Part shown: positions 8,283 through 39,013 of the stretch, piece after piece
Layout of the letters: each line of letters begins with the position of its first letter
Position numbering within the stretch: position 1 is the stretch's first letter
Source: an uncultured Planctomycetia bacterium
Lineage (GTDB): Bacteria > Omnitrophota > Gorgyraeia > 2-02-FULL-51-18
Assembly: GCA_964497635.1 (NCBI GenBank)
Contig: CAZCDB010000001.1
Span: forward strand, 1 to 57,210
DNA length: 57,210 nt
Reading direction: 5' to 3'
Notes under the pieces: model-generated
What the model saw: only the letters and a program-made list of their open reading frames with translations
What the model was told of the DNA's origin: nothing
The model's database searches: none
Position numbers and translations under genes: made by a program

Positions 8283-8960
8283 ATGGCTAAGAATTTTCTA
8301 ATAGCAGTTCCTTTTGCAGACAATACACCTGTTGTGGCCGTCCGTCGTGCCACAAAAGAGGGGATGGGGGTGGCGGAGCTTCGGGTGGATCTTTTTTCTT
8401 CTTATGAAATTGCTCACGTTCTGAATGAAGCGCGTAAATTTAAAAAAATATCTACCATCGCTACTATTCGTTCCAAAAAAGAAGGGGGGCAGTGGAAAGG
8501 CTCTGAAGCTCAGCGGTTGGAGCTTTTTAAAGTACTACTCCCTTTTGTGAATACGATCGATATCGAGCTGAGCTCTCAAAAAATTATTCAGCCGGTCATC
8601 GCCGAAGCGCGTCGTCTAAAAAAGAAAGTGATTGTCTCGTATCATCATTTTCAAAAGACGCCCAGCCGTCCGGCCCTTGAGACTATTTTTAAAAAAGCCA
8701 AAGCCGCCGGAGCCGACATCGTCAAAATCGCGGTGATGGCTCGCTCCAAAAAGGATGTCAAAAGCCTGGCGGAGTTTACGGTTGCACACGCAAAAGCCGG
8801 GGTGATTACCCTTTCCATGGGCAAAGAGGGCGAGATTTCGCGGATTTTATTTCCCCTGTTAGGGTCCCGACTGACTTTTGCTCATATGGGGCGCTCAAGT
8901 GCTCCCGGACAGATGGATCTTAAGACCACCACCCGCCTGCTTAAAAAATTATACGCCTAA
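8283..8960 (+). CDS. aroD: Type I 3-dehydroquinate dehydratase
   Basis: GVAELRVDLF, ATIRSKKEGG, IDIEL, VSYHHFQKTP, GADIVKIAVMA (Schiff-base Lys context) and ITLSMG are AroD class I motifs. Confidence 0.8.
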   Translation: MAKNFLIAVPFADNTPVVAVRRATKEGMGVAELRVDLFSSYEIAHVLNEARKFKKISTIATIRSKKEGGQWKGSEAQRLELFKVLLPFVNTIDIELSSQKIIQPVIAEARRLKKKVIVSYHHFQKTPSRPALETIFKKAKAAGADIVKIAVMARSKKDVKSLAEFTVAHAKAGVITLSMGKEGEISRILFPLLGSRLTFAHMGRSSAPGQMDLKTTTRLLKKLYA

Positions 8961-9015
8961 AAGCCTTTCTGATATAATCTAGGTCTTTTCTGAAACCAAC
9001 TGTTTTGGAGCTGCC

Positions 9016-10317
9016 TTGATCAATCGCTACACGCTCCCCGAAATGGGGAAGATCTGGACCGAGGAAAATCGGTTTAGAGTCATGCTCGAAGTCGAAGTCG
9101 CCGCCTGCGAGGCGATGGCCGCGCTGCACCTTATCCCCAAAAAATCCGCCCAAAACATCCGTAAAAAAGCCTCTTTTCAGTTGTCACAAGTCCATAAATA
9201 TGAACAAGTTACAAAGCATGATGTCACCGCATTTTTAAAGAGTATCGCTGATTTTGTCGGACCCGATGCTCGCTTTATTCACAAGGGGTTGACCTCTAGC
9301 GACGTGTTGGATACCGCACTTAGCTTGCAGATTCGGGAAGCGCTGGATCTCTTGGTTGACACGGTGGGTGAATTTACCCTTCTTTTGAAGAAAAAAGCCA
9401 TTCAGTACCAAAACACCCCGATGATGGGCCGCTCGCATGGGGTGCACGCCGAGCCGGTGACCTTGGGTCTTAAATTCCTTCTTTTTTATGATGAATTTCG
9501 CCGCAATCTGACGCGTCTTGAAAATGCCCGCAAAGTCATCTCTTACGGCAAGATTTCCGGGGCTGTGGGTACGTACGCCAACATTGATCCCCGCGTCGAA
9601 GACAAAACTTTGAAAATTTTGAAGCTTGAAACAGCGCCTGTCTCCACTCAAGTTTTACAGCGCGATCGTCATGCGGAAGTTTTGTCGTCTCTTGCGATTT
9701 TAGGCGGCTCCCTTGAAAAACTAGCCACGGAAATCCGTCATTTGCAAAAAACAGAGACATTGGAGCTTGAAGAGCCTTTTGCTGAGGGTCAGACGGGGTC
9801 CAGTGCCATGCCCCACAAGAGAAATCCCGTGAACTGCGAGCGCATCGCGGGCTTGGCACGCCTACTTCGAGCCAACTCCCACGCGGCGGTTGAAAATATC
9901 GCCCTCTGGCATGAGCGCGACATCACCCACTCGTCGGTGGAGCGCATCATTCTCCCAGATTCTTTTATCCTGGCACATTTTATGATGTCCGAGATGAAGG
10001 CGGTCATCAAGGATTTGCATGTCTATCCGCAAAACATGATGGACAATATTTGGAAAACCCGCGGACTTATTTTCTCTCAACGTGCGCTCTTGGCGCTCAT
10101 CGACAAGGGTCTTTCGCGAGAAGCCGCCTATAAAATCATCCAAAAGAACGCGATGCGTGTCTGGAAAGACAAAAACTTGAATCTCAAGGATCTTCTTTTG
10201 GAAGAAAAAGACGTGATGGCTCATTTTTCAAAAAAAGAGATCGAGGCACTTTTTCATCTGGATTATCACTTAAAACACGTGGGAACGATTTTTAAAAGAG
10301 TTCTCAAGCGGAGATAA
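9016..10317 (+). CDS. purB: Adenylosuccinate lyase
   Basis: TTG start. RYTLPEMGKIWTEENRF N-terminus, GLTSSDVLDTA, and the GSSAMPHKRNP signature loop of the fumarase/ASL superfamily. Confidence 0.95.
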   Translation: MINRYTLPEMGKIWTEENRFRVMLEVEVAACEAMAALHLIPKKSAQNIRKKASFQLSQVHKYEQVTKHDVTAFLKSIADFVGPDARFIHKGLTSSDVLDTALSLQIREALDLLVDTVGEFTLLLKKKAIQYQNTPMMGRSHGVHAEPVTLGLKFLLFYDEFRRNLTRLENARKVISYGKISGAVGTYANIDPRVEDKTLKILKLETAPVSTQVLQRDRHAEVLSSLAILGGSLEKLATEIRHLQKTETLELEEPFAEGQTGSSAMPHKRNPVNCERIAGLARLLRANSHAAVENIALWHERDITHSSVERIILPDSFILAHFMMSEMKAVIKDLHVYPQNMMDNIWKTRGLIFSQRALLALIDKGLSREAAYKIIQKNAMRVWKDKNLNLKDLLLEEKDVMAHFSKKEIEALFHLDYHLKHVGTIFKRVLKRR

Positions 10318-10319
10318 AA

Positions 10320-10559
10320 ATGAAAGCCAAAGTTTACGTCACGTTAAGAAAGTCAGTGTTTGATCCCCAAGGCAAAGCCGTGCAGGGAGCGCTGGCTTCC
10401 ATGGGTTTTAACGACGTCCAAAACGTCCGCATGGGCAAATACATTGAGCTTGAGCTCGGCACCACCGAAAAAGCAAAAGCCGAAGAAAAGATCAAAATAA
10501 TGTGCGAAAAACTTTTAGCTAATACGGTTATTGAGGATTATAGGTACGAACTAAACTAA
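10320..10559 (+). CDS. purS: FGAM synthase subunit PurS
   Basis: 79 aa with VYVTLRKSVFDPQGKAVQGAL, typical of PurS. It lies directly upstream of purQ. Confidence 0.9.
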   Translation: MKAKVYVTLRKSVFDPQGKAVQGALASMGFNDVQNVRMGKYIELELGTTEKAKAEEKIKIMCEKLLANTVIEDYRYELN

Positions 10560-11222
10560 ATGAAATTTGGCGTTGTTGTTTTCCCAGGATCTAATTGTGA
10601 TTATGACTGCTATCACGTTTTGAAAAACGTGTTGCAGAAGGAGACGGATTTTATCTGGCACAAGGACCGGGATATTTCTAAATATGACTGTATTGTCCTA
10701 CCCGGGGGATTTAGTTACGGGGATTATCTGAGAACAGGCTCGATCGCGCGGTTTTCTCCTGTCATGGAGAGCGTCTACAAGCACGCGGACCGGGGCAAGC
10801 TTGTGATCGGGATTTGTAATGGCTTTCAGATTTTGCTCGAGGCAGGTCTTCTGCCGGGAGCGATGCTACGCAACCGCTCCCTGAAGTTTATCTGCAAATT
10901 TGTCGAGCTTCAGGTTCAAACCACGAACACCCCTTTTACCAAAAAAGCCAAAAAAGGCGAGATTTTAAACATCCCTATTGCGCATGGAGAGGGGAACTAT
11001 TTTGCCGATGAGGCGACGCTCTTTGAGCTTAAACAAAACGACCAGATTGTTGTGAAGTACAAGGAAAACCCCAACGGGTCTTTGGAGGACATCGCCGGCA
11101 TTTGCAACTTTAAGCGCAATGTCTTTGGTCTCATGCCCCATCCCGAGCGTGCCTCTGAAAAAGAGCTGGGCTCAACGGATGGCCTCCGGATTTTTCAGTC
11201 GATCGTGGAGTCGCTCTCATGA
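10560..11222 (+). CDS. purQ: FGAM synthase glutaminase subunit PurQ
   Basis: FPGSNCDYD, the GICNGFQ nucleophile elbow and MPHPER (His-Glu of the triad). Confidence 0.95.
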
Positions 11223-13459
11223 GCACCCTAGTGATTGAAATCACTCCCGAAATCATTCAAAAACATGGCATTACACCTTCGGAGTACGAAGAAATCAAAA
11301 AGGTTTTGGGCCGTGCACCCAACCTCACGGAGCTGGGTATTTTTAGCGTCATGTGGAGCGAGCACTGCTCGTACAAAAATTCAAAAAATGTACTGAAGCT
11401 TTTGCCCAAAGATGGTGCGCGGATGCTGGTGAAAGCCGGTGAAGAAAACGCGGGCGTTGTCGATATCGGCGATGGATACGTCATTGCTTTTAAGGTGGAG
11501 TCTCACAATCATCCTTCGGCGATTGAGCCGTTTCAAGGGGCCGCGACGGGGGTGGGTGGGATTTTAAGAGATATTTTTACGATGGGCGCGAGGCCTATTG
11601 TCGCGATGAATTCGCTTCGTTTTGGAAAACTCGCGGATAAAAACGCCAGTGCCGAAGAGCTTACTACCAAGCGGCTTTTTTCAGGGGTGGTTTCGGGGAT
11701 CGCGCACTACGGCAATTGTTTCGGCGTGCCTACCATTGGCGGCGAAGTTTATTTTGACGAAAGTTATGAGGGAAATCCTCTCGTGAATGCGTTTGCTCTG
11801 GGGCTTGCCAAGCGCGAAGAGATTGTCAAAGCCAAAGCTGAGGGCGTGGGAAATCCTGTCTTTTATCTGGGTGCCTCCACCGGCCGCGATGGCATGGGCG
11901 GCGCTAGCTTTGCCTCCAAAGATCTCACTGAAGAGTCGGAGAAAGACCGCCCGGCAGTGCAAGTCGGCGACCCCTTTATGGAAAAACTTCTTCTGGAAGC
12001 GGTCTTAGAGCTTTTGAAGTCTGGTTCTGTTGTGGGAATTCAGGATATGGGCGCGGCGGGACTGACCTGCTCGACTTGTGAGACCGCTTCCCGTGGAAGT
12101 ACCGGCATTGAGATTGATGTCGCCAAAGTTCCTCAACGTGAAGCGGGTATGGTGCCGTATGAGATCATGCTCTCGGAGTCCCAAGAGCGGATGCTTGTGA
12201 TCATCCAAAAAGGCAAAGAACACATTGCTAAGCGGATTTTTGATAAGTGGGATCTTCACGCGGAAGAGATTGGTTTTGTCACTGGGGATGGCCTCATGCG
12301 CGTCAAAGAAAACGGCGTCACCGTGGCCGAGATTCCCGCCAAGCGCCTGGCGGATGACGCGCCGCTTTACACACGCGAGGAAAGAGAGCCCGCTTACTAT
12401 AAAAAATCTCAAAGTTTTGACCCCAAGAGCCTTGGAAGTGCCGGGGATCTTAACGCTGTTCTTTTAAAAATTTTAGATTCACCTACCGTCGCGAGTAAGC
12501 AGTGGGTGTACGAGCAGTACGACCACATGGTGCGTACCAACACGACGGTTCTTCCGGGTTCGGACGCCTCGGTAGTTCGCGTCAAGGGTACGGATAAGTC
12601 GATCGCTATCTCGCTGGATTGCAACTCAACTTACTGTTATCTAGATCCTTACGAGGGTGGAAAAATTGTCGTGGCAGAGTCCGCGCGCAATGTTGTGTGT
12701 TCCGGGGCCCGACCCCTTTCTATCACCAACTGTCTTAACTTTGGAAATCCCCACAACCCTGAGATTTTCTGGCAGCTTAAAAAATCCATCGAAGGGATGC
12801 GGGATGCCTGCCTTGCTTTTGACACACCGGTTTCCGGGGGTAACGTTTCTCTCTACAATCAGAACCCACGAGGGGCCGTCGATCCAACCCCGGTGGTTGG
12901 GATGGTTGGGCTTCTGGAAGGTCGTGAACCGATGACCTCTCATTTTAAAAATGAAGGCGACGTGATCATTCTTTTGGGCAAAACAAAAGAAGAGTTGGGC
13001 GGTTCTGAGTTTTTGAAAACCATTTTCAATGTGAAGTCTGGAAAAACCCCTTCTTTAGATCTTAAAGAAGCCAAAACTTTAATTGATCTCATGCTGGATC
13101 TCTCAGAGAAAAAACTTTTGCAGTCGGCTCATGACTGTGCCGAGGGGGGGCTTGCGGTGGCGCTGGCCGAGTCTTGTATCACTTCTCAAGGAAAAGAAAT
13201 CGGGGCGGTGGTGGAAGTCGCCGCGGATGGGATTTCCAAAGAAGCGCTTCTTTTTGGCGAGACGCAGTCGCGCATTGTCCTCTCGGTCAAACCGGAGCAG
13301 TTGGCACAGGCCGAGGCCTGCATCCAGAAATTTTCTTATCCGTACCAAGTGATCGGTAAAGTCAAAGGACGTGATTTAAAAATCAACGATTGTCTTCAAG
13401 TGGCTGTGCCGGTACTAAGTCACACTTGGAGAAATGCAATCTCAAGAAGGATGGCCTGA
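11219..13459 (+). CDS. purL: FGAM synthase subunit PurL (small type)
   Basis: 746 aa. [15 protein letters not shown], the duplicated AIR-synthase-like fold and a 4-nt overlap with purQ. Confidence 0.95.
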
Positions 13460-26129: not shown

Positions 26130-27038
26130 TTAAATTCGAGAAGATTTAGCGAGTGCCGTTTCTTGTTTTGCGGCTAAAATCATCGAGTTTGAAGTTTGTC
26201 GGAGGTCCTGGGCCCAGCCAATTTTCCCCAGAGTCCAGATAATCCACTTGGTGGGATCCCAGTCGTACCAATGAATCCCGTTACGGTAGTCGTTGGGGAA
26301 GCGATGATGATAGTTGTGATAGCCTTCTCCGTTGGTTAGGACGGCACCAAACCAATTATCTTTGGCACTAGAGTGGGGGTCGTAGTTAGCCGTACCAAAA
26401 GTGTGTGCAAAGGAGTTGATGAAAAAAGTAGAGTTGAGAACAAGCACGAGGCGAAGCGCAACCGCTAGAAGTAATCCCCCCATCCAATGACCCATGAACC
26501 CTCCGATGAGGATTGGAGTGATTAGCCCTGCCGTGACCGCCCAGAGAGGGTAGTAGCGATGTTGATGCATGATAAGACGACTTTTTCCTAGATCTTTGAC
26601 ATTGTCCTCATTGGCTGGTTGTTTCCAAAAAAGAATCCATCCCATATGGGCGTAAAAAAACCCATAACGAATATTGTGGGGGTCTAATTCTGTGTCGACG
26701 TATTGGTGATGGGTGCGATGTTGGGAGGACCACTTGAAGGCGGACTGCTGGAAAGCACCCGCCCCAAAAAAAAGAACTAAAAAACGTACCAAGGCATTGG
26801 CTTTAAACGTGCTGTGTGCAAAAAGGCGGTGATAGCCGGCGGTAATCGAGAAAGAAGTCGCAAACACATAAAAGAAAAAAAGAGCCCATTCGGCTTTAGA
26901 AACACCCACATGGAAAATATAGATTGGGACGCAGGTAAGCGTCACCAGGGTTGTCAAAAAAATCAGAAAAAAACTCGGCCAGCGTAGCTTTTGCTTTAAG
27001 TGACCCGTTGCGATGGCCTGATCAATGGGTCTCATCAA
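26130..27038 (-). CDS. Acyl-CoA (delta-9 type) fatty acid desaturase
   Basis: Three His boxes: HRLFAH, HRTHHQYVDTELDPH and HNYHHRFPNDY. Four TM segments. Confidence 0.9.
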   Translation of the reverse strand: MMRPIDQAIATGHLKQKLRWPSFFLIFLTTLVTLTCVPIYIFHVGVSKAEWALFFFYVFATSFSITAGYHRLFAHSTFKANALVRFLVLFFGAGAFQQSAFKWSSQHRTHHQYVDTELDPHNIRYGFFYAHMGWILFWKQPANEDNVKDLGKSRLIMHQHRYYPLWAVTAGLITPILIGGFMGHWMGGLLLAVALRLVLVLNSTFFINSFAHTFGTANYDPHSSAKDNWFGAVLTNGEGYHNYHHRFPNDYRNGIHWYDWDPTKWIIWTLGKIGWAQDLRQTSNSMILAAKQETALAKSSRI

Positions 27039-28749: not shown

Positions 28750-29103
28750 ATGAAACAATTCTCTAGAGGTTTTACCTTGCTTGAAATCATGATTGTTTGC
28801 GCGGTGATTGTTATGTTGGGGTCTATTGCGGTTCCTTCGTTTAGGGTCGCAAGAGAAACCGCGAGAACAAATTCCTGCTTAAATAATCTAAGAATTATTT
28901 CCCAGGCTAAAAATCAACTGGCTCTAGCAGACGGTTTGGGGGATGAGGACGTACCAACATCGGCGCAAATTTCTCCTTACCTTAAATTTGCCGATTCTTC
29001 CACCGGTCTCCCCGCAGAGCCTTTGGGCGGTACTTATTCCATCAATGAGATTAATATCAAGCCGACCTGCAGCGTTGGCTCCCCCCACGTCCTTCAAGAT
29101 TAA
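28750..29103 (+). CDS. Prepilin-type N-terminal cleavage/methylation domain protein (type IV pilin or pseudopilin-like)
   Basis: MKQFSRG-FTLLEIMIVCAVIVMLGSIAV is a class III signal peptide with Glu+5. The start is moved to the second in-frame ATG (28750) to give a canonical short leader. The track ORF starts at 28732. Confidence 0.8.
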   Translation: MKQFSRGFTLLEIMIVCAVIVMLGSIAVPSFRVARETARTNSCLNNLRIISQAKNQLALADGLGDEDVPTSAQISPYLKFADSSTGLPAEPLGGTYSINEINIKPTCSVGSPHVLQD

Positions 29104-29133
29104 ACCAACTGTTTTGTTTTTGGAGGTCCGGGC

Positions 29134-29997
29134 ATGAAAAAAGTATTAATCGTTGCCAAAAAAAGCGCTTACCAGACTTATTTTAATGAGTACCAACACC
29201 AGTCGCTTAAAAAACTAATCCGCAAAGGCGACGCGGCGCTCCTAAGAATCCGTCGTTCCCATGACACCCACTACAAAACACTTGAGGATATCCGACAATT
29301 TTTAAAAAAAAGAAATGTTTCTGTGCATGTTTTATTTCGAGGGGAAAAGTTTGATTCTAAAAAATATGATCTGGTGATTTCAGTGGGTGGGGATGGCTCA
29401 TTTTTGGAGGCGTCTCATCAGCTTGAAAAAGGACTCATTCTTGGGGTCAACTCGGACACCAGTCACAGTGTTGGAAAACTTTGCCCGGCCAATCGTAGCA
29501 ATTTTGAGTATTATTTTAATCAAATCCAAAAAGGTCATTTCAAAATCCAGTCGCTTCACCGCATGGAAGTCCGTCTAAATCGTAAAAAATTGGCCTTTTA
29601 TGTGCTCAACGATATTCTTGTCACTCATCTGTGCCCGGCGGCCATGAGCCACTACACGATCCAAATCGGTTCTGTGGCTGAAAAACAAAGAAGCTCGGGT
29701 GTTTGGATCTCAACCGCTGCGGGTTCGACGGCGGCGATGCATTCAGCGGGCGGTCGACCGATGCTACAGACTTCCAAGGCTCTTCAGTATTTGCCGCGAG
29801 AGCTTTTTCAGGGGCACGGTCAAGACTATAGACTCCAGGGTGGGATTCTTCCTCCAGGTAAAAAACTGACCCTTGTTTCCCAAATGCAAGAGGGGATGCT
29901 TTATCTGGACGGCGCCCACCATACAATGCCGTTTGGGTACGGGGATCGTCTGGAAGTGTCAGATGGGGTGCCGCTTCATAGTGTTTTTATTGCTTGA
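29134..29997 (+). CDS. nadK: NAD kinase
   Basis: DLVISVGGDGSFL, VNSD, NDILV and STAAGSTAAMHSAGG motifs. Confidence 0.8.
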   Translation: MKKVLIVAKKSAYQTYFNEYQHQSLKKLIRKGDAALLRIRRSHDTHYKTLEDIRQFLKKRNVSVHVLFRGEKFDSKKYDLVISVGGDGSFLEASHQLEKGLILGVNSDTSHSVGKLCPANRSNFEYYFNQIQKGHFKIQSLHRMEVRLNRKKLAFYVLNDILVTHLCPAAMSHYTIQIGSVAEKQRSSGVWISTAAGSTAAMHSAGGRPMLQTSKALQYLPRELFQGHGQDYRLQGGILPPGKKLTLVSQMQEGMLYLDGAHHTMPFGYGDRLEVSDGVPLHSVFIA

Positions 29998-30042
29998 CGC
30001 CCATAATTTTATTATTTATGATATTTCTGTAATTTCAGAAAT
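29994..30042 (+). promoter_or_regulatory. sigma70-type promoter plus inverted-repeat operator upstream of the GbsR/MarR-type regulator
   Basis: TTGACG (29994-29999), 17-nt spacer, TATGAT (30017-30022). This is followed immediately by ATTTCTG-N6-CAGAAAT (30023-30042), 8 nt before ATG 30050. Confidence 0.55.
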
Positions 30043-30049
30043 ATAGATA

Positions 30050-30601
30050 ATGAAACTATCCGAAGTTCAAAAACGCTTTATTCTTCATTGGGGGGAGATT
30101 GGCGCCTGGTCCGGAATCAACCGGACGGTGGCCCAGATCTTTGCCCTGCTCTATCTTTCCGATAAAGCTCTAAACGCCGAACAAATCGCAGAAACTCTTT
30201 CCATCTCCAGGTCCAATGTCAGCACGGGGATCCGTGAACTTCAGACCTGGCGTCTGATTCGGGTGATTCATGTCATAGGGGACCGGCGGGATCATTTTGA
30301 AACACTCAAAGATGTTTGGGAGATGTTCTCGCTCATGATGGATGAGAGGCGACGCCGGGAGTTTGACCCGACTCGCCAGGTTTTAAAATCCTGCTTGGAG
30401 GATTTGGAAAAAGCAAGTCCGGAAGATTTATCCACCAAAAAAGCGATTGGGCAGATGCTTGATTTTTTTGACACGATGACGATATTTCATGATGAGCTTC
30501 GACAAATTCCCTCCAAGCAGATGAAGCAATTTGTCGCCTCGACTCGGAAAATCCAACAACTACTAAAATTATTGCCATCGTATGGAAAAGAGAAGACATA
30601 A
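30050..30601 (+). CDS. GbsR/MarR-family winged-helix transcriptional regulator
   Basis: FILHWGEIGAWSGINRTVAQIFALLYLSDKALNAEQIAETLSISRSNVSTGIRELQTWRLI matches the GbsR/COG1510 pattern. Confidence 0.75.
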   Translation: MKLSEVQKRFILHWGEIGAWSGINRTVAQIFALLYLSDKALNAEQIAETLSISRSNVSTGIRELQTWRLIRVIHVIGDRRDHFETLKDVWEMFSLMMDERRRREFDPTRQVLKSCLEDLEKASPEDLSTKKAIGQMLDFFDTMTIFHDELRQIPSKQMKQFVASTRKIQQLLKLLPSYGKEKT

Positions 30602-30603
30602 CC

Positions 30604-31335
30604 ATGGCGATCCTTCTGTTTATTCTCCTCCACTGGTATCTAGCGGCTTTTTGTCAGACGGTGTATTTGCATCGATACGCGTCGCATCAGATGTTTACAA
30701 TGACACGTTTTTGGGAGCGCGTGTTTTACGTCCTCACCTTCATCACTCAAGGGTCTTCTTATCTCAATCCTCGCGCTTATGCTCTAATGCATCGGATGCA
30801 TCATGCTTATAGCGATACAACAAGCGATCCTCACTCTCCTGTTTTTTTTAAAAGTCCTGTCCGGATGATGCTTAACACATTGAAGGTCTATCTAGATTTA
30901 TATTCCAATAAAATTCAGCCCGAGCCAAAATTTGAGGGCGGGTACCCCGAGTGGCCGGTGTTTGATCGGTGGGCCAATCTTTTGGGAGTGCGATTTCTCT
31001 GGATTGTCGCGTATATCGCTTTTTATGTCTATTTCGCGACGGCGTGGTGGCAGTTTTTGTTGATCCCTATCCACATTTTTATGGGACCAATCCATGGGGC
31101 GATCGTCAACTGGTGCGGTCACCGCTACGGCTATGCCAATCACGACAATCGTGATCAATCCAAAAACACCCTCTCGGTCGATCTATTGACCATGGGGGAG
31201 CTGATGCAAAATAATCATCACCGGGATACCCAGAGAGTTAACTTTGCCCATCGTTGGTTTGAGTGGGATCCGACGTACTTCTTGCTTCGGATCCTTCACC
31301 GGGCTAAAGTGCTCCGTTTTAGCAGGTCTCAGTAA
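30604..31335 (+). CDS. Short membrane fatty-acid desaturase family protein
   Basis: His boxes HRYASH, HRMHHAYSDTTSDPH and NNHH. It starts 3 nt after the regulator stop. Confidence 0.8.
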   Translation: MAILLFILLHWYLAAFCQTVYLHRYASHQMFTMTRFWERVFYVLTFITQGSSYLNPRAYALMHRMHHAYSDTTSDPHSPVFFKSPVRMMLNTLKVYLDLYSNKIQPEPKFEGGYPEWPVFDRWANLLGVRFLWIVAYIAFYVYFATAWWQFLLIPIHIFMGPIHGAIVNWCGHRYGYANHDNRDQSKNTLSVDLLTMGELMQNNHHRDTQRVNFAHRWFEWDPTYFLLRILHRAKVLRFSRSQ

Positions 31336-32126
31336 TGTCCACTTTTCACTTGGCTTGCCTTTTGGGAGTGATGTTTGTTTTTATTTTCATGATTTTTTTG
31401 TGGGTTTTACAGCTGAAAACAAAAAATGCGGGCGTTGTCGATCTAGGGTGGACTCTCTCGTTGGTGGTTTTGGTGGTCTCTTATGCGGTGGCGGCGCCCG
31501 GAGCATTTCAGCGTAAGTTTTTGATTGTCGGCATGGTGCTGTGCTGGGGACTGCGATTGGCTTCTCATATTTACCGACGGATACAAAAAGAAGTCCATGA
31601 AGATCACCGCTATCAGAGCATGAGGCAAGCTCTGGGGAATAAGGCTCCTTTCTTTTTTCTCCTCTTTTTTCTTTTTCAAGCGGTGGTGGCGGTGGCGATT
31701 TCGCTGCCGTTTTACCTAGCGTCTAAAAATCCAGATCCAAAGCTTTATCCCGTGGAAGTGATCGCTTTAATTTTATGGGGGATTGCTTTCACGGGTGAGA
31801 CCATCGCAGATGCTCAGCTGCGTGGTTTTAAACACGATCCCGCCAATCGTGGCAAAGTCTGTGAGGTGGGTCTTTGGAACTATTCGCGGCATCCCAACTA
31901 TTTTTTTGAATGCCTTATCTGGATCAGTTATTTTCTGGTGGCGTCGGCGTCTCCCGGGGGAATTTACGCATTGGTCAGTCCGGTACTCATGATTTTTTTT
32001 ATTGTGAAGGTGAGCGGCGTACCTCCGGCGGAAGCACAGTCTCTGGCTTCGCGTGGAGAAGCTTACCGACGCTATCAAGCCTCCACCTCTGTCCTAATTC
32101 CCTGGTTTAAGAAAAATAAGGTATGA
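31335..32126 (+). CDS. DUF1295 / steroid-5-alpha-reductase-like membrane protein
   Basis: Multi-TM, with C-terminal GLWNYSRHPNYFFECLIW typical of DUF1295/ICMT-like proteins. TAATG overlap with the upstream gene. Confidence 0.75.
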   Translation: MSTFHLACLLGVMFVFIFMIFLWVLQLKTKNAGVVDLGWTLSLVVLVVSYAVAAPGAFQRKFLIVGMVLCWGLRLASHIYRRIQKEVHEDHRYQSMRQALGNKAPFFFLLFFLFQAVVAVAISLPFYLASKNPDPKLYPVEVIALILWGIAFTGETIADAQLRGFKHDPANRGKVCEVGLWNYSRHPNYFFECLIWISYFLVASASPGGIYALVSPVLMIFFIVKVSGVPPAEAQSLASRGEAYRRYQASTSVLIPWFKKNKV

Positions 32127-33160
32127 GTTTTCAATTTACCCTGCTTGAAAAAGGACTTCTTCCAGATGTTCTTATCCGTTGGGGGATCCGCGATCTTTTG
32201 AAGAAAAAACTCGAGCTTGAATCCCGCGGGGGAGTCCAGGCCCAATCCGAGCGTTTCCGTCAATTTCTTGAGGCAACGCGCAAAAGCCCTATTTCCATCA
32301 ATACCGATGAGGCCAATGCCCAGCATTACGAGGTGCCGGCAGAGTTTTTTGAAAAAATCATGGGCTCTCGGATGAAATACAGCTCGGGGTACTGGAAGGA
32401 TGGAGTTTCTTGGCTCAACCAATCCGAAGAAGACATGCTGGCACTGACCGCTCAAAGGGCCGAGCTTCGGGACGGACAAACTATTTTAGAGCTGGGTTGC
32501 GGCTGGGGATCGCTGACACTTTGGATGGCCGAGCATTTTCCCAAAAGCCGTATCGTGGCTGTCTCCAATTCCAAAAGCCAAAAGCAATTTATCGAGGCTA
32601 AAGCCGCTCGCCTTGGCATCCGCAACGTCACCGTCATTACTTGTGAAATGAGCCAGTTTCATACGGAAGAGACCTTTGACCGGATTGTCACCGTGGAAAT
32701 GTTTGAGCACATGCGAAACTACGAAAAACTTTTTGAAAAAGTCTCCGGATTTTTAAAGCCCTTAGGCAAACTATTCATTCATGTATTTTCTCACAAGCAG
32801 TGGGCCTACTTTTATGAGGACAATGGACCCCAGGATTGGATCACGCGCTTTTTTTTCTCAGGCGGGACGATGCCCAGTCATCACTTGTTTCTTTATTTTC
32901 AAAATTTTTTGACGATTGAAAATCACTGGCAAGTGGACGGGACCCATTATCAGAAAACTTGCCGGGCCTGGTTGGAGAATATGGACCGTCATGAAAAAGA
33001 AATCCGGCCTATTTTAAAAAAGGTTTACGGCGCTGAGAGCGGGAAGTGGTGGGTGTATTGGCGTGTGTTTTTTATGGCGTGTGAGGAGCTTTTTGGCTAT
33101 CGGGGAGGTCAAGAGTGGATGGTAAGCCACTATCTTTTTCGGAAGGCTTCGGGTGAATAA
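32123..33160 (+). CDS. Cyclopropane-fatty-acyl-phospholipid-synthase-like SAM methyltransferase (copy 1)
   Basis: AQHYEVPAEFFEKIMGSRMKYSSGYW, the SAM motif ILELGCGWGSL, and VEMFEHM. Confidence 0.85.
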   Translation: MSFQFTLLEKGLLPDVLIRWGIRDLLKKKLELESRGGVQAQSERFRQFLEATRKSPISINTDEANAQHYEVPAEFFEKIMGSRMKYSSGYWKDGVSWLNQSEEDMLALTAQRAELRDGQTILELGCGWGSLTLWMAEHFPKSRIVAVSNSKSQKQFIEAKAARLGIRNVTVITCEMSQFHTEETFDRIVTVEMFEHMRNYEKLFEKVSGFLKPLGKLFIHVFSHKQWAYFYEDNGPQDWITRFFFSGGTMPSHHLFLYFQNFLTIENHWQVDGTHYQKTCRAWLENMDRHEKEIRPILKKVYGAESGKWWVYWRVFFMACEELFGYRGGQEWMVSHYLFRKASGE

Positions 33161-34397
33161 ACCAAAGGTAGCGGTCATCGGCACCGGCATCGCAGGGATG
33201 GCGGCGGCTTACACACTTCGGGATCGATGCGAAATTTCATTTTACGAAAAAGAAGCGGTTCCAGGAGGACATACTCACACTGTCACCATCGATGAAGAAG
33301 GTCAGCCGATTTTCATCGACACGGGGTTTATGGTCTACAACGAAGTGACTTATCCGGAGCTGGTCCGATTTTTCAAAGCGCTGGAGATTCCCGTTAAAAA
33401 TACCTCGATGTCTTTTAGCGTCCAGCACAAACCTTCCGATCTTGAGTACTGCGGCACCGGCATCGCGGGACTTTTTTCCCAGAAAAAAAATATTTTTCGG
33501 CCCTCTTATTGGAAACTACTTGGGGCGATTGATCGATTTAATCGCGAGTGTTTAGAGATTTTGTCGGAAGGGGCGAACCCCAATCAAACAATTGCCGAAT
33601 ATGTTCTAAAAAAAAATCTAGGGGAAGATATTCTTGAAAAGTATCTTCTCCCAATGAGTGCGGCGATCTGGTCAACTCCTCCGGACAAAATGCTGCAGTT
33701 TCCGGCACGGACCTTGGTGCGTTTTTTTAAAAACCATGGGCTTTTGGGACTGACCGGGCATTTTCAGTGGAAAACCATTGAAGGGGGAAGTCGTGTCTAC
33801 CGCGACAAAGTGCTCTCGTTTTTCCCAGGGGCTCTGAAACTAGACCGGGCCGCGGTGGAGGTTTCACAAGATCAGGGGGCTGTTTTGGTTCGGGACAGCC
33901 GAGGGGAAGAGGCGCGTTTTGAAGCGGTGGTTTTGGCCTCTCACGCGGATCAGACTCTCAAGATGTTAAAAGACCCTTCTGTTTTAGAGCGAGAGCTTTT
34001 ATCAAAATTTCGCTACCAGAAAAACTTCTCAGTGCTTCACACCGACGAATCTTTGATGCCAAAAACTCGCACGGCTTGGTCGTCCTGGAATTACCGGATT
34101 GAGCCAGACCGCGCGTCCAGCGTGATTTACTGGATGAACAGTCTTCAAGGGGTCTCTAAAAAGAAAAATTATTTTGTTTCCATCAATGATCCGGGTCAAA
34201 TAGATCCTGCAAAAATTTTATGGAAAAAAGAAGTCGAGCATCCGATTTATAACGCGGAAGCCGTTGAGGCTCAAAAGGAGCTTCCCCGGCTCAATGAAAA
34301 GGGACCGATTTATTTTTGCGGAAGCTACTTTAACTATGGCTTTCATGAGGATGCGTTTGTTTCGGGGGTCCGAGCGGCTGAGGCGATTTTAAAATGA
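33153..34397 (+). CDS. FAD/NAD-binding amine-oxidase-like oxidoreductase (COG2907 type)
   Basis: GTG start. Dinucleotide fold KVAVIGTGIAGMAAAY ... YEKEAVPGGHTHT. It sits directly upstream of DUF1365, as in conserved lipid clusters. Confidence 0.8.
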   Translation: MNKPKVAVIGTGIAGMAAAYTLRDRCEISFYEKEAVPGGHTHTVTIDEEGQPIFIDTGFMVYNEVTYPELVRFFKALEIPVKNTSMSFSVQHKPSDLEYCGTGIAGLFSQKKNIFRPSYWKLLGAIDRFNRECLEILSEGANPNQTIAEYVLKKNLGEDILEKYLLPMSAAIWSTPPDKMLQFPARTLVRFFKNHGLLGLTGHFQWKTIEGGSRVYRDKVLSFFPGALKLDRAAVEVSQDQGAVLVRDSRGEEARFEAVVLASHADQTLKMLKDPSVLERELLSKFRYQKNFSVLHTDESLMPKTRTAWSSWNYRIEPDRASSVIYWMNSLQGVSKKKNYFVSINDPGQIDPAKILWKKEVEHPIYNAEAVEAQKELPRLNEKGPIYFCGSYFNYGFHEDAFVSGVRAAEAILK

Positions 34398-35173
34398 GTT
34401 CTTGTCTCTACGAGTGCGATATCCTGCACGCTCGCTTCTCTCCAAAAAAGTACAAGCTCTCCCAAAAGATCTTTATGTTTTATCTGGATTTGGATGAGCT
34501 GGAGGATCTTGGGAAAAAATTTTTATTTTTTGGCCGAAACCAGTGGAAGCTCTTTAATTTTTGTGACAAAGACCACTATGTCGGCCCTCACCCAACCGCC
34601 AAAGAAAATATTCTCGCTTTTCTTTCTTCTAAAGGAATGTCACCGCTGCCTCAGAAAATCAAGCTTCTGACCCATTTGCGGGTTTTGGGCTATGTGTTTA
34701 ATCCGGTGTCTTTTTATTTTTGCTTTGACGGCCAGGACAGGCCGGTGGCGGTGGTGGCGGAGGTGGGGAATACGTTTGGGGAGCAAAAGGCATTTTATCT
34801 TGGAAAAGACAAATGGGTGGGAGATGCTTTTAAAGACCGTCAGACCAAATATTATTATATTTCTCCTTTTGTGGATTTGGATGCACAACTGGATTTTCAT
34901 CTAGAGGTTCCGGGTGAGACGATGAATATTCGGGTGGATGATTGGAAGGAAGGTCAGAAGTTTTTTATTTCGACGATGACGGGAAAAAGAAAGCCTCTTT
35001 CCGATGCCTCCCTTCTTTGGTATGCTCTGCGTTATCCGCTGGTAACGCTTCAGGTGATCTTATCGATTCACTGGCATGCGTGGCGGCTGTGGCTTTTAAA
35101 AGTGCCTCATCATCCCAAACAAGAAAGACCCGATTTGCAAAGAGACGTGACGCGTGAGTACCAAAAAAAGTAA
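34394..35173 (+). CDS. DUF1365 family protein
   Basis: SCLYECDILHARFSPKKYKLSQKIFMFYLDLDEL is the characteristic N-terminal pattern of DUF1365. ATGA overlap with the upstream gene. Confidence 0.75.
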   Translation: MSSCLYECDILHARFSPKKYKLSQKIFMFYLDLDELEDLGKKFLFFGRNQWKLFNFCDKDHYVGPHPTAKENILAFLSSKGMSPLPQKIKLLTHLRVLGYVFNPVSFYFCFDGQDRPVAVVAEVGNTFGEQKAFYLGKDKWVGDAFKDRQTKYYYISPFVDLDAQLDFHLEVPGETMNIRVDDWKEGQKFFISTMTGKRKPLSDASLLWYALRYPLVTLQVILSIHWHAWRLWLLKVPHHPKQERPDLQRDVTREYQKK

Positions 35174-36398
35174 TTTTTATCGGGAGCTGGTTTTAAAGCT
35201 CTTATCTGAGATGACTCTTGGAAGCCTGACTTTGCGGCTTCCGGAAGGGGATGAGCTTGTTTTTGGCCGGGGAGAGGGATCCATCCAGGCTCGTGCTCAA
35301 ATAACATCGGATCATTTTTTTAAAAAATGTGTTTTATATGGCGACGTGGGTTTTGGCGAGGCCTATGTCGATGGGGATTGGCAAACCGACGACATCGAAG
35401 CGGTGATTGCTTGGATGATTTTAAATGTTGAAAATCACCCGACACTGATGGACACGCGCCAAAAAAGCGCTCCGGTTAATTTTCTTGGATTCTTGAATCA
35501 GCTGCGCCATCAGTTTAAAGCCAATACGGTTGAAAAAAGCCGCAAAAATATCTCCGCTCATTATGATCTGGGCAATGAATTTTTTCGTCTTTTTTTGGAC
35601 CCGGGGATGACTTATTCTTCCGCTTATTTTGGCTCAGGTTTGGATGCGAAGCATGAGACATTGCAAGAGGCTCAAGAAAGAAAATATTCCCAGCTTTGTC
35701 ATAAGCTTCAGCTGAAGGCCTCCGACCATGTGCTTGAAATCGGAAGCGGTTGGGGAGGTTTTGCCATCCACGCGGCCAAGCATTTTTACTCCCATGTGAC
35801 GACGATTACCATTTCCCGGGAGCAGTACGCTTACGCGCGTGAGCGATTTAAAAAAGAAGGACTGGCAGATAAAATCGATATCCAGCTGGTGGACTATCGT
35901 CACCTGAAAGGCCAATATGACAAAATCGCCTCGATTGAGATGATTGAAGCGGTGGGGCATGAACATCTGCCGGCTTATTTTTCCCAGTGCCATCGGCTTT
36001 TGAAAAAGGATGGGCTTTTAGGGCTTCAGATGATTTTGGCACCGGATCACCGGTATGAGAGTTTTCGTCAGCGGCCGGATTGGATTCAAAAGCATATATT
36101 TCCTGGCGGGCTTTTGCCCTCTTTTGAGGCGATATTAAAGGCCTTACGAAAAACGGGGGATTTGGGGCTTCTGGGATATGAGGACATGACTCCGTTTTAT
36201 GCCAAAACTTTGGCACTCTGGAGAGAGAATTTTGGACGAGCCCAGGCTCAAGTGCGCTCCTTGGGGTTTGATGAGGCTTTTATCCGGAAGTGGAATTATT
36301 ACTTTTCTTACTGCGAAGCGGCGTTTCGGATGCGCAATATCAGCGTGGTTCAAGCGGTGTTTACTCGGCCCAACAATCACCGATTGGTATCTTCATGA
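35154..36398 (+). CDS. Cyclopropane-fatty-acyl-phospholipid-synthase-like SAM methyltransferase (copy 2)
   Basis: GFGEAYVDGDW, ISAHYDLGNEFF, VLEIGSGWGGFA and IEMIEAVGHE. Confidence 0.9.
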   Translation: MSTKKSNFYRELVLKLLSEMTLGSLTLRLPEGDELVFGRGEGSIQARAQITSDHFFKKCVLYGDVGFGEAYVDGDWQTDDIEAVIAWMILNVENHPTLMDTRQKSAPVNFLGFLNQLRHQFKANTVEKSRKNISAHYDLGNEFFRLFLDPGMTYSSAYFGSGLDAKHETLQEAQERKYSQLCHKLQLKASDHVLEIGSGWGGFAIHAAKHFYSHVTTITISREQYAYARERFKKEGLADKIDIQLVDYRHLKGQYDKIASIEMIEAVGHEHLPAYFSQCHRLLKKDGLLGLQMILAPDHRYESFRQRPDWIQKHIFPGGLLPSFEAILKALRKTGDLGLLGYEDMTPFYAKTLALWRENFGRAQAQVRSLGFDEAFIRKWNYYFSYCEAAFRMRNISVVQAVFTRPNNHRLVSS

Positions 36399-36964
36399 AG
36401 CGATTTTTGGGAATCCATGGATTTTTTATTCTTCTAAGTTCTTTCTTCATAAGTCCAGTATGGGCTGGAGTTTTAGACGCCTCACTACGCTCCTCTGGTC
36501 GTGATAATCAGATCGCCGCTTTAAAACAAGAAACACTGGTTCTTCGGGGCAAAGGAATTTTTCGCTACATGGGAGTGAGGCTTTATGAGGCGTTTCTTTA
36601 TGTGGGTGCCGGAGTGGAGCCTCTTTCGGAAACGCCTAGAAAATTGGTGATTCGCTACGACCGCGTTATCCCCAAAGATGCGATTATTCAGGCCGCTGAG
36701 AAAAATCTTAAAAATAACCCGGAAGTGCATTTTCTAGAGATTAAAGATAGGGTCGATCGCTTGCATCGTGCTTATGTGAGCGTTAAAAAAGGGGATGAGT
36801 ATTCCCTGGTCTATCGTTCCGGGAAAACCGTCCTCTTTTATAATCAGAAACCTTTGGTGGAGGTTCAAGGTGCCGATTTTGCCAAGGCTTATTTTAGTAT
36901 TTGGCTCTCGAAGTACTCCATCAATCAAAAACTCAGAAAAGAGCTCATTGGAGAGCCTCGATGA
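36395..36964 (+). CDS. Secreted chalcone-isomerase-like (fatty-acid-binding type) protein
   Basis: The start is set at ATG 36395 (ATGA overlap with the cfa-like stop). This gives the signal peptide MKRFLGIHGFFILLSSFFISPVWA. LVLRGKGIFRYMGVRLYEAFLYV and FAKAYFSIWLS match the Chalcone_3-type pattern. The track ORF start at 36290 lies inside the upstream gene. Confidence 0.7.
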   Translation: MKRFLGIHGFFILLSSFFISPVWAGVLDASLRSSGRDNQIAALKQETLVLRGKGIFRYMGVRLYEAFLYVGAGVEPLSETPRKLVIRYDRVIPKDAIIQAAEKNLKNNPEVHFLEIKDRVDRLHRAYVSVKKGDEYSLVYRSGKTVLFYNQKPLVEVQGADFAKAYFSIWLSKYSINQKLRKELIGEPR

Positions 36965-37455
36965 GTCTTTGGCTTCGACTTTTGTGGATTTATTTTCGAA
37001 ATTTTTCAAAGAAAAAATTAAATCCTCTGGGTGTGTCGGTTGTCGGACTCATGGCTCTGCCCAATGACTTGGATATTTATGGGCACATCAATAATGGACG
37101 CTACTTAACGCTCATGGACCTAGGGCGTATTGATCTTATTTGGCGCACCGGGATGGGGGGCATGGCCAAGAAGTACCAGTGGTCGCCCCTGGTGGGGGCT
37201 GTTCGCATTCGGTATCGGAAGTCTTTGAGGGTGTTTCAGTCTTTTGAGATTCATACCCGGATTTTGGGATGGGACCAAAAATGGTTTTATATGGAGCAGA
37301 CCTTTCGTCGGGGTCGTCGGGAGATGGTTCGCGCGACGGTCCAGGGGCTCTTTCGCGGTCCTGAGGGGAATATCCCCCCGGCTCGGGTGCTCCATTCCCT
37401 TGGATTTGCTGAGAACTCACCCCTACCCCCCTCCCATTTCTTAGATTTTGCTTAA
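36961..37455 (+). CDS. Hotdog-fold acyl-CoA thioesterase (4HBT/YbgC-like)
   Basis: The start is set at ATG 36961 (ATGA overlap). LPNDLDIYGHINNGRYLTLMDLGR is typical of thioesterase-superfamily proteins. Confidence 0.7.
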   Translation: MSLWLRLLWIYFRNFSKKKLNPLGVSVVGLMALPNDLDIYGHINNGRYLTLMDLGRIDLIWRTGMGGMAKKYQWSPLVGAVRIRYRKSLRVFQSFEIHTRILGWDQKWFYMEQTFRRGRREMVRATVQGLFRGPEGNIPPARVLHSLGFAENSPLPPSHFLDFA

Positions 37456-37510
37456 AAAAATCGTTTAAAAATAGTTTTCATTAAAATTTAGCATTCCAGA
37501 ATAAATTTTC

Positions 37511-37539
37511 TTGCACAAAAGATAATGGAGGGGTAGAAT
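37511..37539 (+). promoter_or_regulatory. sigma70-type promoter upstream of the small lipoprotein and PKD genes
   Basis: TTGCAC (37511-37516), 17-nt spacer, TAGAAT (37534-37539). Inverted repeat ATGGAGG/CCTCCAT (about 37525-37550) overlaps the -10 box. Confidence 0.55.
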
Positions 37540-37597
37540 CCACCTCCATAAAACTTCCCTGACCTATCACCTTGTTTGCTAAAAATTTGGAGTCTCT

Positions 37598-37747
37598 ATG
37601 AGAAAGCTTTTATATTTTACGTTGGCATTGATGGTGACTTTGACAGCCGTTGGCTGTGCTAAAAAAAGTGCTTCTGAGCAGTTACGTGAGGATATGAACA
37701 AAGCCGCAAAGCAAATCGACAAAGACGTTAAAAATCTTATCAACTAA
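37598..37747 (+). CDS. Small lipoprotein (49 aa)
   Basis: Hand-translated: MRKLLYFTLALMVTLTAVGCAKKSASEQLREDMNKAAKQIDKDVKNLIN. It has a lipobox (LTAVG-C) and a GGAG SD 6 nt upstream. Confidence 0.6.
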   Translation: MRKLLYFTLALMVTLTAVGCAKKSASEQLREDMNKAAKQIDKDVKNLIN

Positions 37748-37780
37748 GTGTAAGTCAACACAACAAGGAGAGTCGTTCAA

Positions 37781-39013
37781 ATGAAGAGCTCAAAAAAGGC
37801 AGTAGCCGCTCTGTTGGTTCTGGCGGGAGTTGTTTTCTTCCAGTATCGCGGATGGGCTGGAGAGTATACCGATAAGTCGTATCATGGAGATGAAACTCAT
37901 TATTACAAACACCCTCGTCATGGCTCCTTTACCGGACCTTTTGACTACGGTTCAAAAAACAAACAAGCAGTAGCTCCGGCACCACGTGTTCAGACGGGAA
38001 AATGCAATACCTTTACCTTTGACGCGACTCGGTCTACGGATCCTGACAAACAACAGTTAACCTATCTTTGGAATTTCGGTGATGGCCAGACCAGCGATCA
38101 AGCCGTGGTGACTCACACCTACGAAAAAGCGGGTGACTATGATGTCTCGCTGACCGTTCGTGATAATTCGGGGATGATTTGTGACACTGGTGCTTCAAAC
38201 ACCAAGGTTAGCGCTAATTTTCCTCCAACCGCTTCTATCAAAGACGTCCGCGCTTGCGTAGGCGAAGCAGTCACTTTGGATGGATCGGCTTCCGAGGGTT
38301 CCGGACCTTTGAGCTATCGCTGGGATTTTGGCGATGGAACAACCGGTGAAGGTGCTCAGGTCACTCACACCTATGAAAAAGCAGGAAATTATCGTGTTAG
38401 CTTGGTGGTGGATGATGGAAAGAATACCGCTTGTTCAACCGCGGCGGCTTCAAACGTTGTATTGATTGGAGATAGACCCTCTGCCAATCTGACCGGACCC
38501 ACCTCTCTTTGTGTGGGACGTGTGGCGGGTTTTGACGCGCAAGCTCAAGGGGTTTCCAAGCTTCACTGGGATTTCGGTGATGGCAGCACATGGGATGGCG
38601 GATCAAAAGCTAGCCACTCCTTTACAAAACCAGGCACTTATACCGTGACGGTTACCGGAGACAATGGACAGGGGCTTTCTTGCTCTTCCGTGGTTTCTAG
38701 CACCAAAGTGACGGTGTACGGGTCTCCGATTGCCAATGCAGGCCAGAACTTGGTTTGCTGTGTGGGGAAAGAAGCTAGCTTTGACGGATCAGGATCTTCT
38801 TCCGCCGACGGCAGCCCTCTTTCCTATCACTGGGACTTCGGTGATGGTGCAACAGCCGATACCGCTCAAGCAACCCATGTTTATGAGAAGATTGGGACTT
38901 ACCGTGTGGTTCTTACGGTGAAAGATAATTCCGGCAGCGATTGCGGCATGGCTTCCAGCTCTTTTGTGGCCAACGTGAACGCTCAGCCTGAAGCGGTTAT
39001 CGTCGTTAAGTAA
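37781..39013 (+). CDS. Secreted protein with four PKD domains
   Basis: Signal peptide. Four repeats of FDxSxS..PLSYxWDFGDGxT...THxYEKxGxYxVxLxVxDxxG, with WDFGDG codons at about 38069, 38321, 38567 and 38831. Confidence 0.85.
   Translation: MKSSKKAVAALLVLAGVVFFQYRGWAGEYTDKSYHGDETHYYKHPRHGSFTGPFDYGSKNKQAVAPAPRVQTGKCNTFTFDATRSTDPDKQQLTYLWNFGDGQTSDQAVVTHTYEKAGDYDVSLTVRDNSGMICDTGASNTKVSANFPPTASIKDVRACVGEAVTLDGSASEGSGPLSYRWDFGDGTTGEGAQVTHTYEKAGNYRVSLVVDDGKNTACSTAAASNVVLIGDRPSANLTGPTSLCVGRVAGFDAQAQGVSKLHWDFGDGSTWDGGSKASHSFTKPGTYTVTVTGDNGQGLSCSSVVSSTKVTVYGSPIANAGQNLVCCVGKEASFDGSGSSSADGSPLSYHWDFGDGATADTAQATHVYEKIGTYRVVLTVKDNSGSDCGMASSSFVANVNAQPEAVIVVK

Follow-up and report, generated by a model that had tools for sequence, protein, structure and literature searches.

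Gene content of the locus

We analysed a 57,210-nt stretch of DNA (contig CAZCDB010000001.1, positions 1 to 57,210; hereafter the window) from the 86% complete, 1.46-Mb genome of an uncultured Omnitrophota bacterium (GCA_964497635.1). The open reading frame (ORF) list and the junction sequences revealed nine plus-strand, co-directional ORFs at positions 30050-37455, which we discuss here as a candidate operon for methylated furan fatty acids. An initial annotation, made from the sequence without database searches, had described eight genes of a lipid-modification operon of the furan or methylated fatty-acid type, placed under a regulator. The gene count was borne out, giving nine cistrons with the regulator first. 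Hidden Markov model searches with Pfam agreed on every domain that had been named, and the proposed type of operon is supported by the results below. None of the NCBIfam profiles attained its cut-off with any of the nine operon proteins. The features of the locus are as follows.

29994..30022, plus strand: sigma-70-type promoter TTGACG-17-TATGAT, the top promoter match in 29000-38200 (10/12 positions)
30021..30044: operator-like palindrome ATATTTCTGTAA/TTTCAGAAATAT, core ATTTCTG-N6-CAGAAAT at 30023-30042
30050..30601, plus strand: GbsR/MarR-type winged-helix regulator, 183 aa, first cistron, presumed autorepressor (MarR_2, 37 bits, 2.9e-09)
30604..31335, plus strand: short membrane fatty-acid desaturase, 243 aa (FA_desaturase, 53 bits, 6.8e-14)
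31335..32126, plus strand: DUF1295 polytopic membrane protein, 263 aa (DUF1295, 239 bits, 7.6e-71; Steroid_dh, 3e-12)
32123..33160, plus strand: FufM-type (coclaurine-N-methyltransferase-like) S-adenosylmethionine methyltransferase, 345 aa (CMAS, 132 bits; assigned from structure matches, clade and literature link)
33153..34397, plus strand: UfaD-like FAD-dependent flavoprotein of the amine-oxidase/phytoene-desaturase type, 414 aa (Amino_oxidase, 63 bits, 3.3e-17; NAD_binding_8)
34394..35173, plus strand: UfaO-like DUF1365 protein, 259 aa (DUF1365, 230 bits, 3.6e-68, full-length)
35154..36398, plus strand: methylase of the cyclopropane fatty acid (CFA) synthase family, 414 aa, in the position of UfaM (RPA2569) (CMAS, 285 bits, 7.8e-85)
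36395..36964, plus strand: chalcone-isomerase-like (Chalcone_3) protein, 189 aa (Chalcone_3, 84 bits, 1.8e-23)
36961..37455, plus strand: hotdog acyl-CoA/acyl carrier protein thioesterase of the 4HBT_2/YbgC type, 164 aa, last cistron (4HBT_2, 76 bits, 3.8e-21)

Eight junctions were read, and all are overlaps except for a 2-nt gap between regulator and desaturase (TAA at 30599-30601, CC, ATG at 30604). The desaturase and DUF1295 genes are joined by TAATG at 31335. ATGA overlaps connect the DUF1295 gene with the 345-aa methylase gene (32123-32126), the flavoprotein with the DUF1365 gene (34394-34397), the 414-aa methylase with the Chalcone_3 gene (36395-36398) and the latter with the thioesterase gene (36961-36964). 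The flavoprotein gene begins with GTG at 33153, ahead of the upstream stop at 33158-33160 (8-nt overlap), and the 414-aa methylase gene with GTG at 35154, ahead of the upstream stop at 35171-35173 (20-nt overlap). Both the ORF list and the junction sequences agree with the earlier description of packed genes with overlaps or gaps of 3 nt or less. The G+C content of the operon equals that of its flanks, where an NAD-kinase-like gene lies upstream and an AsmA gene downstream.

The flavoprotein, the DUF1365 protein and the 414-aa methylase

In the characterized pathway, UfaM, a methylase of the CFA family, yields 11-methyl-12-trans-18:1, the FAD protein UfaD (RSP1091/RPA2571) forms a methylated diene, and the DUF1365 protein UfaO (RSP1090/RPA2570) inserts oxygen derived from O2, which yields the furan fatty acid 9M5-FuFA (PMC7380195). 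The initial annotation had named UfaM, a flavoprotein desaturase UfaD and an O2-dependent UfaO, which is correct according to that study. In Rhodopseudomonas palustris, RPA2571-2570-2569 correspond to ufaD-ufaO-ufaM, and these three genes suffice for 9M5-FuFA synthesis; UfaM, UfaD, UfaO and the further methylase FufM have phospholipid-bound chains as substrates (PMC7380195).

At 33153-36398 of the window, the gene order flavoprotein-DUF1365-CFA methylase equals the ufaD-ufaO-ufaM order of R. palustris. The DUF1365 protein matched PF07103 over model positions 1-234 of 235. The flavoprotein, whose gene overlaps that of the DUF1365 protein, matched PF01593 and PF13450, and shares 38-41% identity, along its entire length, with flavoproteins encoded beside DUF1365 in sigma/ChrR-linked proteobacterial clusters.

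The best solved structures for the 414-aa methylase are the CFA synthases 5z9o, 7qos and 6bqc. A tree of 42 CMAS-family sequences placed it with cluster-linked enzymes, including a sigma/ChrR-linked one from Pseudoalteromonas, and a long branch (99/96) set the Klebsiella Cfa, the one housekeeping reference in the tree, apart from it. With the NCBIfam model PRK11705 (E. coli Cfa type, cut-off 400) the 414-aa protein scored 272 bits and the 345-aa protein 152 bits, so that the equivalog threshold was not reached. Further support is provided by a sister Omnitrophota family, in which DUF1365 and a CFA-type methylase are one fused ORF of 671-679 aa. This fusion ties the 414-aa methylase to the UfaO step. 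Taken together, tree, PRK11705 score and fusion point to a tie of the operon-borne 414-aa methylase with the furan pathway and not with housekeeping cyclopropanation. In plants, UfaD-like and UfaM-like domains are fused instead (PMC10940516).

The fused ORFs are located at 9826-11865 (plus strand) of locus L023 and at 8647-10662 (minus strand) of locus L025. Of the 29 DUF1365 matches obtained across the phylum (sample described below), about half lie in open frames of 665 aa or more. In a Klebsiella pneumoniae locus (L034, 8759-9933; CP125156.1), the cluster-linked CFA-type gene matched in two pieces in different frames and has no annotated coding sequence; it may be a frameshifted pseudogene. 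The record itself, a 5.4-Mb chromosome, is filed as a plasmid.

The second methylase and FufM

The 345-aa methylase is 24-27% identical to the CFA type. Its best solved structures are the plant coclaurine, pavine and tetrahydroprotoberberine N-methyltransferases (6gkv, 8e-76, full length), while the match to the E. coli CFA synthase 6bqc reached 9e-28. In the 42-sequence tree it was found in a separate clade (100/100) together with homologues from Shinella and Acinetobacter.

FufM of R. palustris (RPA0924) is 26% identical to UfaM, and FufM alone converted 9M5-FuFA to 9D5-FuFA in vitro (PMC7380195). FufM and Arabidopsis AT4G33110/LIME1 are 37.9% identical (PMC10940516), and AT4G33110 carries the annotation of a putative coclaurine N-methyltransferase (PMC3388832). 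The link of FufM to AT4G33110 and that of the 345-aa protein to coclaurine N-methyltransferases thus suggest that both share one branch. According to published primers, RPA0923 and fufM are co-directional with an ATGA overlap. The primers also give the termini of FufM (UniProt Q6NBA4), which begins with MSGLASL and ends with RLKPA. The Shinella (alphaproteobacterial) member of the 345-aa methylase family ends ...SHYRLRPAGTRS.

The distribution of both families was determined in 301 Omnitrophota genomes. DUF1365 was present in 29 genomes and a methylase of the 345-aa type in 25, and 24 of these 25 also carried DUF1365. The sole methylase genome without a DUF1365 match is 67% complete. Such a nested pattern has been described for FufM (PMC7380195). 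Membership of the 345-aa protein in the FufM family is well supported by these comparisons of sequence and distribution.

Short sequences taken from the published genes were also searched directly. A 26-mer spanning the RPA0923/RPA0924 junction had no match in the genome contigs searched, nor had a 28-mer spanning the RSP1090/RSP1089 junction, for which the joining of the primer halves is uncertain. A 21-mer from the start of fufM gave 13 metagenome matches, all in unrelated short frames or other genes, and these were discarded.

The DUF1295 protein

In all loci examined the DUF1295 gene precedes the gene of the FufM-type methylase, adjacent and coupled. The protein matched Steroid_dh above the cut-off (47 bits), and its stretch RHPNYFFE is invariant. 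A sequence search found no solved relative of either the DUF1295 or the Chalcone_3 protein. The AlphaFold model of the DUF1295 protein (pLDDT 95) had as its top folds the delta14-sterol reductase 4quv and the SRD5A structures 7c83 and 7bw1 (TM 0.49-0.55), followed by ICMT methyltransferases.

In Chlamydomonas, the SAK1-dependent response to singlet oxygen includes the induction of two 'CFA synthase' genes and of one gene each for DUF1365 and DUF1295 (PMC4067076). The association of DUF1295 with the FufM-type methylase may therefore extend to algae. One of the two Chlamydomonas CFA genes was later annotated as coclaurine-N-methyltransferase-like.

Promoter, operator and regulator

The stop codon of the preceding NAD-kinase-like gene falls within the operon's -35 hexamer. 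The palindrome core is exact and widens to 24 nt with 11/12 pairs; this palindrome starts where the -10 hexamer ends and stops 5 nt short of the start codon of the regulator gene. Within the window it is not significant, 45 of 100 shuffles yielding a match with up to 2 mismatches. It is nevertheless more than chance, because its core is the sole perfect copy in the 1.46-Mb genome and because four orthologous loci (the window, L054, L057 and L058) share identical -35 and -10 hexamers and identical half-sites, while the remaining upstream sequence has diverged. The regulators of the latter three loci are 67-76% identical to that of the window. The conserved palindrome is a sound phylogenetic footprint of a predicted repressor site overlapping the transcription start. 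As to a wider regulon, a second perfect operator was not found in the genome. The closest near-operator, at 17469 of contig C13, falls within a gene called ABC-ATPase-like by its sequence and was taken as chance.

The best NCBIfam match of the regulator was the GbsR-family protein CudC, far under the cut-off, and its homologues carry the source annotation GbsR/MarR. Among solved structures the best match was MJ223 (PDB 1ku9, 1.6e-13), which we take to be the structural model used for GbsR. Orthologues of 65-83% identity head the same cluster elsewhere, and homologues of 52-58% identity are found in unrelated contexts in Planctomycetota-like genomes. Judging from the conservation of promoter and operator, the regulator probably represses its own operon through the palindrome abutting the -10 hexamer and is released by some signal. 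The initial annotation had placed a GbsR-type regulator upstream, with a 7-N6-7 palindrome over its own promoter, and had noted that a sigma/anti-sigma pair is lacking. Both statements stand: the palindrome is exact, it is conserved together with the promoter hexamers and MarR_2 was found, and a ChrR-type anti-sigma domain (Cupin_7) had no match in the 86%-complete genome.

The nearest relative (L059; GCA_964492015.1, 285-1893) has the same NAD-kinase-like and AsmA flanks and the same eight enzyme genes, and the regulator gene is absent. The regulator is thus a sub-lineage recruit outside the conserved module. In this relative, the desaturase gene begins 8 nt past the NAD-kinase-like gene. In L058 (GCA_021733565.1), a DUF1475 gene (4815-5156) lies between the short desaturase and DUF1295 genes, behind the same regulator and operator. 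In the window, the upstream gene itself (29134-29997, plus strand) matched NAD kinase domains weakly, with 23 and 20 bits, under the cut-offs; it is syntenic with the cluster in L059 and unlinked in genome G210.

Desaturase, Chalcone_3 protein and thioesterase

The operon desaturase has the His boxes HRYASH, HRMHH and QNNHH and is 64-71% identical in L016, L054, L057 and L058. It aligns to mouse SCD1 (4ymk) from residue 76, and the first transmembrane helix of SCD1-type enzymes is absent. A second desaturase, of the delta-9 type and full length (302 aa), is encoded 3 kb upstream at 26130-27038 (minus strand), with the boxes HRLFAH, HRTHH and HNYHH. It is of the type located within furan clusters of another Omnitrophota class.

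The Chalcone_3 protein has an N-terminal, signal-peptide-like hydrophobic segment (residues 4-29), and homologues occur in both Omnitrophota cluster types as well as near the Acinetobacter cluster described below. The thioesterase matched the YbgC/FadM subfamily under the cut-off. It was found only here and in the nearest relative (L059/L060), and no homologue was present in the loci of 16 relatives or in L054 and L057. The thioesterase is therefore specific to this genus-level lineage and rare in such clusters.

Proposed pathway and alternative explanations

We consider it fairly probable that the nine genes form a self-regulated operon which converts acyl chains of membrane phospholipids to methylated furan fatty acids. 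In the scheme that we propose, the short desaturase would use O2 to introduce a cis double bond, and the 414-aa methylase, in the role of UfaM, would turn this monoene into a methyl-trans-monoene. The flavoprotein (UfaD role) would introduce a second double bond, after which the DUF1365 protein (UfaO role) would insert O2-derived oxygen and close the furan ring. Finally, the 345-aa methylase of the FufM type would put a second methyl group on the ring. The GbsR/MarR protein, bound to the palindrome at the -10 hexamer, would shut the operon until a signal frees it. Beside the five steps, three accessory proteins are predicted: the DUF1295 membrane protein with its reductase-like fold, an exported chalcone-isomerase-like protein of the lipid-binding type, and the thioesterase. 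Each enzymatic step and the product are predicted from homology, gene order, coupling and conservation.

Several points weigh against this pathway. Orthology to UfaM, UfaD, UfaO and FufM is putative, proposed from family, order, context and literature links. RSP1089, the CFA homologue encoded in the operon of Rhodobacter sphaeroides, is dispensable, and UfaM is encoded elsewhere (PMC7380195), so position alone is no proof of a UfaM role. With 243 aa the operon desaturase is atypically short. On contigs of other phyla, the DUF1295-methylase pair occurs without UfaD or UfaO nearby. Neither a haem-copper oxidase nor a bd oxidase was detected in the 86%-complete genome, and the host may thus see little of the O2 needed by three of the proposed steps. 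Omnitrophota are usually regarded as anaerobic.

Other features of the genome bear on the supply of unsaturated chains and on contact with O2. No FabA orthologue over the cut-off was found, and the genome contains 4-5 membrane fatty-acid desaturases (whole genome, contigs C1, C13, C84 and C96), which fits the need for an operon-borne desaturase. Two ORFs of contig C13 (20321-21283 and 21332-23716) appear, when read by eye, to be class I ribonucleotide reductase-like, one of them beta-like by its N-terminal sequence. These data, from a genome of 86% completeness, suggest a non-respiring host that encounters O2, relies on desaturases to obtain its unsaturated chains and would benefit from a radical scavenger in its membrane. 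Furan fatty acids are such membrane antioxidants, scavenging radicals and singlet oxygen.

We weighed other products and fates of the operon against the furan pathway. The 345-aa methylase and the DUF1295 protein, as an ene-reductase, could work like BfaB/BfaA and TmpB/TmpA, which form 10-methyl fatty acids via a 10-methylene intermediate (PMC7791843); the products would then be saturated or methylene mid-chain methyl-branched fatty acids, or cyclopropane fatty acids. The fold of the DUF1295 protein resembles that of NADPH-dependent sterol and steroid C=C reductases, and UsgR, a relative from fungi, acts as an ene-reductase (PMC8597850). Two-gene modules of methylase and reductase have arisen at least twice (PMC7791843). 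The pair in question is always adjacent and coupled and can stand alone in other phyla. However, the same fold is common to methyltransferases such as ICMT, FufM acted by itself in vitro, and this explanation leaves the homologues of UfaD and UfaO without a role. In addition, the pair is nearly strictly nested in DUF1365-containing Omnitrophota genomes (24/25), and this distribution weakens the case for a pair independent of the furan pathway. We therefore regard such products as unlikely. We are equally sceptical of the narrower proposal that the DUF1295 protein is the membrane ene-reductase partner of the FufM-type methylase, a third, independently evolved module after BfaAB and TmpAB that would give a reduced or methyl-branched lipid. 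If true, the extended operon would have a product different from both furan fatty acids described so far, in a host where O2 appears to serve solely as a substrate of biosynthesis.

Oxidised or methylated fatty acids might also be released in free form and serve as signals or exported protectants, the thioesterase freeing them and the Chalcone_3 protein carrying them in the periplasm. The order of the last two genes, a coupled hotdog thioesterase preceded by a Chalcone_3 protein with its signal peptide, and the retention of both in the nearest relative would fit such a role. We judge it rather improbable, as the thioesterase is missing from all other related clusters examined, and the characterized UfaM, UfaD, UfaO and FufM work on phospholipid-bound chains. 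Least probable, with hardly any chance in our view, is that the cluster came in by horizontal transfer as a passenger and is seldom if ever active in a probably non-respiring host. Its occurrence is patchy, as reflected by DUF1365 in 29 of 301 Omnitrophota genomes and by its absence from a 97%-complete genome of the same genus, and the missing terminal oxidase would agree with inactivity. In another search, for an empty site in a genome of the same genus (G047), the flanking NAD-kinase-like gene was found to be absent too. A passenger is, however, difficult to reconcile with nine intact, coupled frames, a G+C content equal to the flanks, flanking NAD-kinase-like and AsmA genes that remain syntenic in the nearest relative, and a promoter and operator that are conserved. 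Moreover, the genome appears to encode other O2-using enzymes, namely the 4-5 desaturases and the beta-like ORF of a class I ribonucleotide reductase read from its sequence.

To our knowledge, the bacterial furan fatty-acid pathway has been worked out only in two Alphaproteobacteria. The window would hold the full four-enzyme set together with a dedicated desaturase as one compact operon in Omnitrophota, a phylum without cultured lipid biochemistry. The singlet-oxygen sigma/anti-sigma switch is here replaced by a presumed GbsR/MarR repressor with a well-defined operator, and the DUF1365-methylase fusions of relatives give independent genomic support for the operon methylase in the furan pathway. 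The known picture of the pathway is unchanged. The value of the locus lies in the annotation of DUF1365, DUF1295 and 'Cfa-like' cluster genes, and compact gene sets of this kind are useful for heterologous production.

Distribution and comparison with known systems

The extended gene set is present in ∼8-10% of the 301 Omnitrophota genomes sampled. Sixteen Omnitrophota loci contain the same families in two arrangements, [desaturase]-DUF1295-methylase-UfaD-UfaO-CFA-[chalcone isomerase] in the class of the window and UfaD-UfaO-CFA-desaturase-chalcone isomerase-DUF1295-methylase in another class. A Shinella replicon carries sigma-ChrR-DUF1295-methylase close to DUF1365, and clusters of other Proteobacteria have SDR, NTF2, DUF2878, DUF3833 and photolyase genes instead. 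The initial annotation had listed two methylases, a dedicated desaturase and extra genes as differences. These are real with respect to R. sphaeroides, but they belong to the ordinary extended form, in which only the thioesterase and the regulator are lineage-specific. The conclusion that they and the different regulator imply an unusual, unknown chemistry does not hold, since the second methylase belongs to the FufM family and a cluster-borne desaturase, DUF1295 and Chalcone_3 are part of a widespread extended form. The extended gene set and the pathway are known from other bacteria, and the locus is an ordinary further example with a different regulator.

Closest to the proposed pathway is R. 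palustris CGA009 (RPA2571-2570-2569 and RPA0924), with the same three core families in the same order (PMC7380195). As in the window, a second methylase, ∼26% identical to the first, is coupled by ATGA to its upstream gene (RPA0923 in R. palustris), and the predicted end products, mono- and dimethyl furan fatty acids on phospholipids, are alike. In contrast to R. palustris, the window has all genes in one operon, plus the desaturase, the chalcone-isomerase-like protein, the thioesterase and the GbsR/MarR-type regulator. Rhodobacter (Cereibacter) sphaeroides RSP1091-1087 likewise has adjacent genes for the flavoprotein UfaD and the DUF1365 protein UfaO, followed by a CFA-type gene. It differs in that this gene (RSP1089) is dispensable, ufaM (RSP2144) is unlinked and FufM is missing. 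Its control by the singlet-oxygen system sigmaE/ChrR differs as well, a ChrR-type domain being undetected in the genome of the window. SigmaE/ChrR control, although typical of Proteobacteria, is not a defining feature of the pathway.

The Acinetobacter piscicola plasmid pYH12207-1 (NZ_CP048660.1, 17454-23580) carries, in this order, genes for a desaturase, a FAD oxidoreductase, DUF1365, a CFA-type methylase, DUF1295 and a class I methylase, with a chalcone-isomerase-family gene nearby. Its second methylase is 50% identical to that of the window. The plasmid cluster differs by a full-length desaturase (328 aa), another gene order, lipocalin and NTF2 genes, the lack of a thioesterase, and LysR and histidine-kinase genes nearby in place of GbsR/MarR. 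With the GbsR family (Bacillus subtilis GbsR; MJ223) the regulator shares the MarR_2 winged helix and the position as first gene of a presumably repressed operon, whereas the target genes here would be lipid-modifying and not choline or glycine-betaine genes. The BfaA/BfaB and TmpA/TmpB systems for 10-methyl fatty acids resemble the locus by a CFA-family methylase beside a putative reductase; the BfaA/TmpA-type reductases are soluble flavoproteins, of the FAD oxidase type and the geranylgeranyl-reductase type (PMC7791843). In the window, by contrast, the partner is a DUF1295 membrane protein, and homologues of UfaD and UfaO are present.

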